From: Candidatus Baldrarchaeota archaeon
GTDB taxonomy: Archaea > Asgardarchaeota > Baldrarchaeia > Baldrarchaeales > DXJG01
Assembly (NCBI GenBank): GCA_019056805.1
Contig: DXJG01000001.1
Coordinates: 156,572-188,571, forward strand
Direction of reading: 5' to 3'
Length of the DNA: 32,000 nt
In this document: in pieces, positions 18,197 to 20,681 of the stretch
How positions within the stretch are numbered: position 1 is the stretch's first letter
Layout: each line of letters opens with the position of its first letter
Position numbers and translations under genes: made by a program
The notes under the pieces: generated by a model
Database searches by the model: none
Seen by the model: the letters and a program-made list of their open reading frames with translations, nothing else
Told to the model about the DNA's origin: nothing

Positions 18197-18305
18197 TGGT
18201 GGGCCCGCCGGGATTTGAACCCGGGACTTCCGCCGTGTGAGGGCGGCGTCATAGCCGGGTTACCCAACGGAAGCTTATTTTCTTCCATTTCTAGACCACG
18301 GGCCC
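18197..18305 (-). tRNA. tRNA-Val(CAC) with encoded CCA and a 31-nt D-loop intron
   Basis: GGGCCCG acceptor, CCGCC-CT-CAC-AC-GGCGG anticodon arm, CCGGG-TTCAAAT-CCCGG T arm, A73 then CCA; 78 nt after intron removal. Confidence 0.95.
18260..18290 (-). other. BHB intron at tRNA position 15/16 (31 nt)
   Basis: Helix GTCT/GGGT, bulges AG|A and AA|C, intron stem AATGGAAG/CTTCCGTT; removal restores the D-arm GTCTAG-CCCGGCTA-TGAC. Confidence 0.85.
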
Positions 18306-18851: not shown

Positions 18852-19820
18852 TTATTCACTTGATTTTTCTACTAAAAACTTTTTGACTTCACAAGCAATT
18901 ACACGAGCTAGAACAACGGGAACGGCTTCACCTACCTCTTCGTACTGTACAGATCTACCTCCAAAAAATACGTGATCATCTGGAAAACTCATCAAACGAG
19001 CATGCTCCCGCACTGTTAAAAAACGATCTTCGAAAGGGTGAATAAATCTAGAATTGCCTAAAACGGTTGGAGCAACCCTATAGGGATGTAATCTAGTCCA
19101 ATTAGTAAAAATTTTTCCTCTTGCACCTCTATAAAAGATAAGAGACTCCCCCCACCTAAGGGAAGCTATTTTCTTCCTTTTTCGTCTAGGTATGGGATGC
19201 CATTCATGATTAGGTACATCGTGTACACCTTCAGGATCTGGTAAGTCACCGATAGCCTCAATAACTGTAACCTTTTTCTTTACTGGCTTTGGAGAGAGTT
19301 TTATGTTAGAAATAAACAATCTTGAACGCCTAGAAGGATTACCGTATCTTTCAGCTCTTAAAAGATTAAAATATATTTTTGAATACCCTACTCGTTCAAA
19401 CTCTTTTTTTATTGCATCTTTTAAAGGGCCCTCAATAATTTGAGGGACATTTTCCATAACAAATACCTTTGGTCTTAAATCACCAACAAAACGAATAAAA
19501 CTTAATGTAAGTCTCCCAATAGGATCTTTATAAAGCCTATCTAGGGGATTTTCTAGTCTTTTAATATTGGCGGCTGTAAAGGGTTCACAAGGAGGCGAAC
19601 CTATAATAACATCGGGTTCTTTACCGATAAAACCCAAAAAGTCGATAGGATGAATATTTTTTATGTCTTCAACAATTAAAGTTGTATTTGGAAAATTGTA
19701 ACGATACGTTTCAGCTACGGGTGGAAAATTATCTATTGCTCCCACAACTTCGAAGTCCTCATCTACAAAGCCGCGAGAAAAACCACCAGCACCACAAAAC
19801 AGATCATAAACTCTAAACAT
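18852..19820 (-). CDS. C5-cytosine DNA methyltransferase (orphan)
   Basis: DLFCGAGG (motif I), GSPPC (IV), MENV (VI), R-R-F (VIII), LTVREHARLMSFPD and GEAVP. True start is ATG 19820 after a GAGGTGG SD; the ORF-track extension overlaps the tRNA. Confidence 0.92.
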   Translation of the reverse strand: MFRVYDLFCGAGGFSRGFVDEDFEVVGAIDNFPPVAETYRYNFPNTTLIVEDIKNIHPIDFLGFIGKEPDVIIGSPPCEPFTAANIKRLENPLDRLYKDPIGRLTLSFIRFVGDLRPKVFVMENVPQIIEGPLKDAIKKEFERVGYSKIYFNLLRAERYGNPSRRSRLFISNIKLSPKPVKKKVTVIEAIGDLPDPEGVHDVPNHEWHPIPRRKRKKIASLRWGESLIFYRGARGKIFTNWTRLHPYRVAPTVLGNSRFIHPFEDRFLTVREHARLMSFPDDHVFFGGRSVQYEEVGEAVPVVLARVIACEVKKFLVEKSSE

Positions 19821-19891
19821 ATATTCCACCTCAAAATTAGGGTGGCGCCGGGGGTGGGATTTGAACCCACGCGGCACAACGGCCACGGGCT

Positions 19892-19905
19892 ATCCACCCC
19901 TAGGA
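19892..19905 (-). other. BHB intron 3 of tRNA-Ser, canonical position 37/38 (14 nt)
   Basis: Helix CTGC/GTGG, bulges TA|T and AT|A, mini-stem CC/GG. Confidence 0.85.
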
Positions 19906-19913
19906 TAGCAGGC

Positions 19914-19941
19914 TTGAGCCCGCGAAGGAAACTATAGCGGA
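19914..19941 (-). other. BHB intron 2 of tRNA-Ser, position 29/30 (28 nt)
   Basis: Perfect helix GAGC/GCTC, bulges GG|T and AA|G, intron stem CCGC/GCGG. Confidence 0.88.
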
Positions 19942-19956
19942 CCGCTCCCTACCAGG

Positions 19957-19978
19957 TTCCCCGGAGATCTATTATCCT
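19957..19978 (-). other. BHB intron 1 of tRNA-Ser, position 15/16 (22 nt)
   Basis: Helix TCCT/GGGG, bulges AG|A and AA|C, short GGA/TCC intron stem. Confidence 0.83.
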
Positions 19979-20209
19979 CTAGGATACCCCGGCATTCTTT
20001 AATTAGATAAATGTGCGTCTTCCTTATTTATTATTTTCTAAGTTATTAATAGTGATTAATCAAAGAGCATGTTACTATACATAGTGGGTTTTTTAATTTT
20101 TGGAACAATAAGTCAAGTAACGGTTTAATAGAGATTTTGATAAATAGATCATAAATCAAGTAATATTCTTTAAATTTCAATAATATAGATAATTTTGAAA
20201 AGAATTAAA

Positions 20210-20559
20210 GCGGCCGCGGCCCCCTTGGGTGGATACCTTTCCCGATCGCGGTGTTTCAGCCCCCAGTCTCTACTCCGCACCCCCGTGAGCGCCGAACGTC
20301 CGGGGTTAGGTTGCTCCTTCGGGTGGACAGTAACACTCTCCATCTCCCGGGCCTGGCCTGGTTCCCCCGGTAAGGGTCGTAGTACTCCCGCCTAAGCGGG
20401 AGACCCGACCGCCGCCGACCCCACGGGACGGAGTTTCATCGCTGTGAGGCTAAATCCTGCGATCGGGGTTAGGTATCGCCCCTTGGGTTACTGGCCCCGC
20501 CATAAACCGGGTTTGCGGTTACAGGAAACCGGTAACTTCCCGGCCCTACCCGCGGCCGC
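20210..20559 (-). ncRNA. ffs: Archaeal SRP (7S) RNA with a 26-nt insertion/intron in helix 8
   Basis: Terminal helix GCGGCCGCGG/CCGCGGCCGC, Alu-domain CTGTAACC, long helix 5 (GATACCT/AGGTATC, CCCGATCGC/GCGATCGGG, ACTCCGT/GCGGAGT), helix 6 hairpin CTCCCGC/GCGGGAG, helix 8 GCCAGG...AGCAAC. Confidence 0.92.
20318..20343 (-). other. BHB intron in SRP RNA helix 8 (26 nt)
   Basis: Perfect helix CGGG/CCCG, bulges AG|A and AA|G, intron stem TGGA/TCCA; splicing gives CAGG-CCC-GGGA-GGG-AGCA. Confidence 0.87.
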
Positions 20560-20681
20560 ATAAAATAGTATGTTTTAATAGTCTAATTAGCTTTTCGTTC
20601 TAAAGTGTGATAAAATAAAAATTTATTTAGATATATGTGATTGGTATGGTGTTATTTGCGGTTATTTTGGAGGTGCTATGA

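Follow-up and report, generated by a model that had tools for sequence, protein, structure and literature searches.

A putative BHB intron in helix 8 of a Baldrarchaeial SRP RNA gene, with inserts at the same position in two archaeal phyla

Results

The SRP RNA gene of the window

Within SRP RNA, a universal and essential molecule, no functional part is better conserved than helix 8. In the window (the whole stretch of 32,000 nt from Candidatus Baldrarchaeota archaeon that was analysed), the SRP RNA gene occupies positions 20213-20556 of the minus strand, where it sits alone in a 720-nt AT-rich spacer. The 344-nt precursor matches the Rfam model RF01857 with 168.5 bits (E 1e-39; cut-off 96.5 bits) over the full model, positions 1-317, and the genome also encodes SRP19 (PF01922, 89.7 bits) and SRP54 (PF02978, 102.2 bits). 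The alignment to RF01857 contains a 28-nt insertion, against 2 nt in the model, at the apical loop of helix 8, and as encoded the gene has an interrupted helix-8 loop. From its sequence, an A/T-rich element upstream of the gene can be proposed as its promoter, and a T-rich tract on the other side is plausibly an archaeal terminator. A scan for bacterial-type promoters and terminators was set aside, the SRP RNA gene being archaeal. The features of the locus, all on the minus strand, are as follows (here and below, a slash within a motif marks the predicted cut).

20213-20556, minus strand: SRP RNA gene (precursor, 344 nt); RF01857 match, colinear with model positions 1-317
20344-20556, minus strand: 5' exon, 213 nt, with the Alu domain, the 5' strand of helix 5, helix 6 and the 5' strand of helix 8; 3' end ...CAGGCCCGGGAG
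20213-20317, minus strand: 3' exon, 105 nt, first bases GGAGCAACCUAACC, with the 3' strand of helix 8, the 3' strand of helix 5 and helix 1
20318-20343, minus strand: predicted BHB intron, 26 nt, made of A, UGGA, an 11-nt loop, UCCA, CCCG and AA; seen as a covariance-model insertion, as the sole large indel against the related genome G004, and in the fold
20346-20349, minus strand: exon half of the 4-bp central BHB helix, CGGG; pair probabilities 0.77-0.95
20343-20345, minus strand: 5' bulge A-G/A, predicted cut 20344/20343; AG/A in 18 of 19 inserts, AG/G in 1
20320-20323, minus strand: intron half of the central helix, CCCG, pairing with exon CGGG
20317-20319, minus strand: 3' bulge A-A/G, predicted cut 20318/20317; AA/G in 14, AU/G in 4 and AC/G in 1 of 19 inserts
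20324-20342, minus strand: inner stem-loop of the intron, UGGA, 11-nt loop, UCCA; the stem covaries across lineages
20573-20584, minus strand: A/T-rich, TATA-like element GACUAUUAAAA, some 20-28 nt upstream of where the model match begins; putative promoter, by sequence reading
20197-20210, minus strand: T-rich tract CUUUAAUUCUUUUC directly 3' of the gene; putative terminator, by sequence reading
Predicted spliced junction: CCCGGGAG/GGAGCAAC, with the genus-specific flank AACCAGGCC

A 26-nt insert with BHB geometry

Read along the minus strand, helix 8 runs from CAGG through CCC (20351-20349), GGG (20348-20346), A20345 and G20344 to the first predicted cut, enters the insert with A20343, UGGA (20342-20339), the apical loop GAGUGUUACUG (20338-20328), UCCA (20327-20324), CCCG (20323-20320), A20319 and A20318, and resumes after the second predicted cut with G20317 and GAGCAAC. 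Exon CGGG (20349-20346) pairs with CCCG (20323-20320) in a central helix of 4 bp, UGGA (20342-20339) pairs with UCCA (20327-20324) in an inner stem, and the bulges AGA and AAG lie on opposite strands, 4 bp apart. The BHB appeared when the full 344-nt precursor was folded, at 37 as well as at 70 °C, its pairs having probabilities of 0.77-1.0, and a local fold agreed. A preliminary description of this DNA had reported a BHB intron within helix 8; its coordinates and shape match our direct reading, the Rfam insertion falls at the same place and the precursor fold concurs.

The same description called the BHB canonical, which is accurate for the perfect 4-bp helix and the AGA and AAG bulges but not for the whole structure. 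The 3' bulge measures only 2 nt (AA) in the MFE fold, because G20317 pairs with C20350, and it has 3 nt only in the canonical register. As for the flanking helices, the inner one has 4 bp here (2-10 bp in the other inserts considered below), and the outer one is weak, with just 2 Watson-Crick pairs (CC with GG) followed by the non-canonical SRP54 loop. As modelled, then, the BHB at helix 8 of this SRP RNA is slightly relaxed rather than textbook. A cut 2 bases past the central helix on each strand, which is the symmetric enzyme rule, nevertheless gives the same product in either bulge register.

The predicted product and an insert-free relative

Joining G20344 to G20317 gives CAGG-CCC-GGGA-GGG-AGCA, and the spliced sequence folds into a stem of 3 bp capped by a GGGA tetraloop, with a symmetric loop flanking it. 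The helix-8 features of RF01857, namely the symmetric loop of CAGG and AGCA, the 3-bp stem and the tetraloop, are present only after removal of 20318-20343, and in the mature RNA the CGGG of 20349-20346 supplies the C of the closing pair and then three bases at the start of the loop. Genome G004, which belongs to the same order but another family, has an insert-free SRP RNA whose helix 8 is identical to the predicted product across a stretch of more than 30 nt. A four-way alignment shows no large indel other than the 26-nt block, on either side of which 14 bases are invariant. That excision would regenerate the conserved helix-8 motif, as previously proposed, is borne out by identity with a sequence that occurs in a relative.

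The preliminary description had also suggested comparing model scores with and without the 26 nt. Using an nhmmer profile built from 11 insert-free SRP RNAs as a proxy for Infernal rescoring, we saw the score rise from 144.5 bits to 161.6 bits when exactly the insert was removed, the best value in a comparison of nine deletions of 26 nt with offsets of 3-12 nt, so that the improvement peaks at the predicted boundaries. The related suggestion that covariance-model annotation might mis-score or miss the gene was correct in its first part, the gene being scored lower, but not in its second, since its 168.5 bits exceed the cut-off of 96.5 and it is not missed.

These observations bear on the main alternative, in which the 26 nt are a retained expansion segment that forms an extended, kinked apical stem on helix 8 and is never spliced. 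The insert does form a stable hairpin stacked on helix 8, as such a segment would. With the insert retained, however, CGGG would stay sequestered by it and neither the tetraloop nor its closing pair could form, and the boundaries of the insert reproduce the sequence of the insert-free relative exactly.

Conservation of the insert within the genus

The two other genus members in which an SRP RNA was matched also have inserts at this position, of 24 and 26 nt, and the insert in one same-genus genome is the same as in the record 'Candidatus Baldrarchaeota archaeon Yap30.bin4.67'. Across the genus, 14-15 of the 15 motif-building insert bases are identical, compared with 3-7 of the 11 bases in the apical loop and 92-94% identity in the exons. 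Since the motif-building bases stay identical while the apical loop varies, they are the only insert bases under constraint within the genus. Fixation of the insert in the genus is what a retained segment would also predict, but an apical loop that evolves much faster than the exons around it speaks against one.

A metagenome scan recovered 6 further contigs with the genus-specific flanks, all 6 of which carry the insert, and a gap-0 form (spliced or insert-free) with these flanks was not found among them. Elsewhere in the genome, for instance in tRNA genes, other copies of the insert were limited to chance 10-12-mers. As the genome is metagenome-assembled and consists of 18 contigs, we considered whether the insert could be an assembly artefact or its BHB shape a chance resemblance. 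The insert sequence also occurs in contigs from independent runs and studies, and together with the 6 additional metagenome contigs and the orthologous inserts in two other species of the genus this makes an artefact or a coincidence exceedingly improbable; the shuffling controls described below point the same way.

Unrelated inserts at the same position in two phyla

A pattern scan over one genome per GTDB species, combined with two 150-genome Rfam surveys, brought to light 19 distinct inserts, between 15 and 60 nt long, that sit at exactly this helix-8 nucleotide position in two archaeal phyla. Close variants within a genus apart, these inserts are otherwise unrelated in sequence. By record label, the Asgard hosts are Jordarchaeia, Freyarchaeia, Baldrarchaeia and 'Promethearchaeota' H2M bins, and the Asgard survey placed inserts at this site in four families (f1, f8, f18 and f20). 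The second phylum is represented by genomes labelled Bathyarchaeota or Bathyarchaeia, and its sample gave three more cases (60, 15 and 15 nt); the phylum samples share no genome, so that these hosts belong to a phylum other than that of the window.

In all 19 inserts we found the arrangement AG/N, a flush inner stem, a 4-nt complement of exon CGGG, and A-N/G. The first pair of the inner stem is U-A, G-C, A-U or C-G and is formed in 18 of the 19, and the second is formed in all 19 with five pair types. Each position of the central helix is paired in 18-19 of the 19 inserts, C-to-U changes preserving G-U pairs; elsewhere the intron half reads CCCG, CUCG, CUUG, CCUG, ACCG or CCGG, and nearly all of these variants pair with exon CGGG. 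Covariation in the central helix can only be one-sided, because the exon half of the motif is invariant. The comparison of related genomes proposed in the preliminary description thus returned the result expected of an intron, with the BHB geometry kept while the insert sequence changes.

We then applied a strict BHB test, requiring at least 3 of 4 bp in the central helix and a flush inner stem of at least 3 bp, to the first 15 inserts. It was passed by 14 of them, whereas shuffled inserts averaged 0.15 passes and never exceeded 2 of 15; in the lone failure a single A-C mismatch takes the place of the first inner pair, with 7 pairs behind it. A generic scanner with strict BHB settings run over whole SRP genes was dropped after returning dozens of hits per gene; SRP RNA is GC-rich and highly paired, which makes such a scanner useless without a comparative anchor.

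The comparison across lineages also bears on the retained expansion segment. Length (15-60 nt) and sequence are free, and only the BHB geometry and the bases at the cut sites are kept, which is the signature of an endonuclease substrate and not of a functional extension. The single metatranscriptome that the run searches matched, X20, contained about 2 of 33 sampled gene words and showed no joint, as retention would predict, and its contigs over helix 8 come from other organisms. The X20 contigs over 20275-20317 belong to another organism, as they are less than 95% identical and run into an uninterrupted helix 8 with a GGAA loop, and those of a relative of about 91% identity stop at 20355/20357, before the insert. 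On the structural and comparative evidence, we consider a retained segment unlikely, and the 26 nt are very probably a BHB intron that is spliced from the SRP RNA, as the sequence comparisons suggest.

Some inserts deserve separate mention. The 60-nt insert of the other phylum (L068; G253:C53:19770-20156) starts with AUGGA and ends with UCCACCCGAA, and these ends are those of the Baldrarchaeial 26-mer. The shared ends could reflect chance convergence of a 4-bp stem, shared origin or transfer. The 15-nt mini-inserts (L069 and L070, in G272 and G240) have a 2-bp inner stem and a tetraloop and are near the lower size limit of BHB introns. In one Asgard genome, a 31-nt insert (L029; G027:C1:41419-41762) lies at a second site, CAG/G, on the 5' strand of helix 8 between CAG and GCCC of the SRP54-binding loop; its central helix pairs GGCC with GGCU (4 bp), its bulges are AG/U and AA/G, and its flush inner stem pairs CAGCU with GGCUG.

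Splicing enzymes and the proposed processing

The genome encodes two EndA paralogues of 184 and 178 amino acids that are 31% identical and each contain PF01974 and PF02778. The 184-residue protein has the motif DHAPFLVHV, and its 178-residue paralogue has DVAKYLVGI, without the conserved histidines. This contrast makes the pair fit a catalytic and a structural subunit of the (alpha-beta)2 type, in which, judging from the motifs, the 184-residue protein would be catalytic and the 178-residue one structural. The two EndA genes lie in the regions C9:197884-198129 and C9:13779-14039, and RtcB is also encoded (C9:161691-162998; 608.5 bits). Earlier work describes (alpha-beta)2 EndA as accepting relaxed, non-canonical BHBs (PMC5829648; PMC4731332).

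We propose that the SRP RNA is transcribed as a 344-nt precursor in which the tip of helix 8 is interrupted by the 26-nt BHB intron. Exon CGGG would pair with the 3'-terminal CCCG of the intron, setting the A-G/A and A-A/G bulges 4 bp apart, and EndA would cut at the two bulges, between 20344 and 20343 and between 20318 and 20317. RtcB would join the exons and probably circularise the 26-mer, and the product, CAGG-CCC-GGGA-GGG-AGCA, would be the normal helix-8 tip that SRP19 and SRP54 need. We infer that cleavage and ligation occur in vivo and that only the spliced RNA works.

A variant of this scheme stops at cleavage, leaving an SRP RNA of two base-paired pieces (213 and 105 nt). Helices 1, 5 and 8 would hold such pieces together, and fragmented stable RNAs exist in other systems. 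Nonetheless, the genome encodes RtcB, which joins exactly the ends that EndA makes, and the contact with SRP19 needs a closed tetraloop. Thermoproteus, moreover, ligates the same helix-8 tip, and there the open version served as the defective control in binding assays (PMC4731332). On these grounds we regard cleavage without ligation as very unlikely and retain full splicing as the preferred reading.

Relation to known BHB substrates

BHB introns are established in tRNA, rRNA and cbf5 mRNA. The helix-8 insert resembles the archaeal pre-tRNA introns at non-canonical positions, which are handled by (alpha-beta)2 or epsilon2 EndA, in its 4-bp helix, its opposite bulges, the cut after the second bulge base and its short size, and differs from them in having SRP RNA as host. 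With the BHBs of rRNA and cbf5 mRNA it would share the status of a non-tRNA substrate of the same endonuclease and ligase. BHBs in rRNA mostly excise whole rRNAs from the operon, or are introns with homing-endonuclease ORFs; the Baldrarchaeial intron, unlike them, is tiny and non-coding and lies in another host gene.

Among known systems, Thermoproteus tenax and T. uzoniensis come nearest: their SRP RNA is circularly permuted, and its leader and trailer form a BHB where helix 8 has its tip (Plagens et al. 2015, eLife, PMC4731332). The recombinant heterotetrameric tRNA splicing endonuclease cuts this BHB and the ends are joined into a circle; ligation by RtcB was proposed, which restores the helix-8 loop needed for binding of SRP19 and SRP54 (PMC4731332). 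The Baldrarchaeial gene likewise has its BHB at the helix-8 tip of SRP RNA. In contrast to the permuted gene with its circular product, however, it is colinear (Rfam positions 1-317), has a short internal intron and is predicted to yield a linear product; the colinear RF01857 match over 1-317 rules out a permuted SRP RNA of the Thermoproteus type. A search for permuted genes of this type among the Thermoproteota genomes without a full match returned only weak fragments.

The same study predicted that the permuted gene of Thermoproteus descends from an internal-intron form (Plagens et al. 2015, PMC4731332), and the Baldrarchaeial gene can be read as that simple-intron form. The statement in the preliminary description that no internal intron was known in a non-permuted SRP RNA held up in our literature search, in that the open-access papers and preprints searched report none. 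SRP RNA is, in this sense, a new host for a known class of intron, recurrent at one site in two phyla, and the recurrence extends to at least four Asgard families and to Thermoproteota labelled Bathyarchaeia, with a second site in one Asgard genome.

A wider reading, which we slightly favour, is that the helix-8 tip is a recurrent BHB landing site across Archaea, where CCC-GGGA-GGG supplies half of a BHB, that the simple-intron form is the precursor of the Thermoproteus arrangement and that co-translational protein targeting in these lineages depends on the tRNA-splicing machinery. If splicing is obligatory, protein targeting in these organisms would be tied to the tRNA-splicing enzymes. The known archaeal hosts of BHBs would extend beyond tRNA, rRNA and one mRNA, and the gene would represent the intermediate through which, in the view of Plagens et al., the permuted SRP RNA of Thermoproteus arose. 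Because a single position holds unrelated introns in two phyla, the site is a good test case for BHB intron gain, either by repeated insertion at a half-motif site or by ancient inheritance with fast turnover. For annotation, the insert lowers model scores by about 15 bits, and 'mature' SRP RNAs annotated in these lineages would be 15-60 nt too long.

Interrupted tRNA genes

ARAGORN found only 11 uninterrupted tRNA genes in this genome, which is 91% complete, and most full-length Rfam tRNA matches span 92-191 nt compared with about 75 expected. Few uninterrupted calls and long Rfam spans together imply that most of the detected tRNA genes are interrupted and under-annotated by standard tools. 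Heavy interruption of tRNA genes and a two-subunit EndA have been described for Jordi-/Freyrarchaeaceae in a preprint that is silent on SRP RNA (bioRxiv 10.64898/2026.10.13.758758).

Some 220 nt downstream from the SRP RNA gene there is a tRNA gene of 148 nt (19846-19993, minus strand; full-length Rfam tRNA match, 29.1 bits). It has inserts of 25 nt in the D-loop (2 in the model) and 57 nt in the anticodon loop (7 in the model), and is probably a two-intron tRNA; the intron mode of ARAGORN names it tRNA-Asp (atc), a doubtful assignment. Further along, a tRNA-Val (cac) call at 18197-18274 (30.1 bits), within 18197-18305 of the window on the minus strand, has a mismatched acceptor stem, and a match to the tmRNA model pairs GGGCCCG at 18305-18299 with CGGGCCC near 18205, with CCA encoded. 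Given the mismatched acceptor and the alternative pairing, the gene at 18197-18305 may be about 108 nt long with an insert near its 5' end. Finally, the longest ORF call at 18852-19886 (minus strand), with 344 aa and a GTG start, runs into the 3' part of the adjoining tRNA gene, and its true start is probably further downstream.
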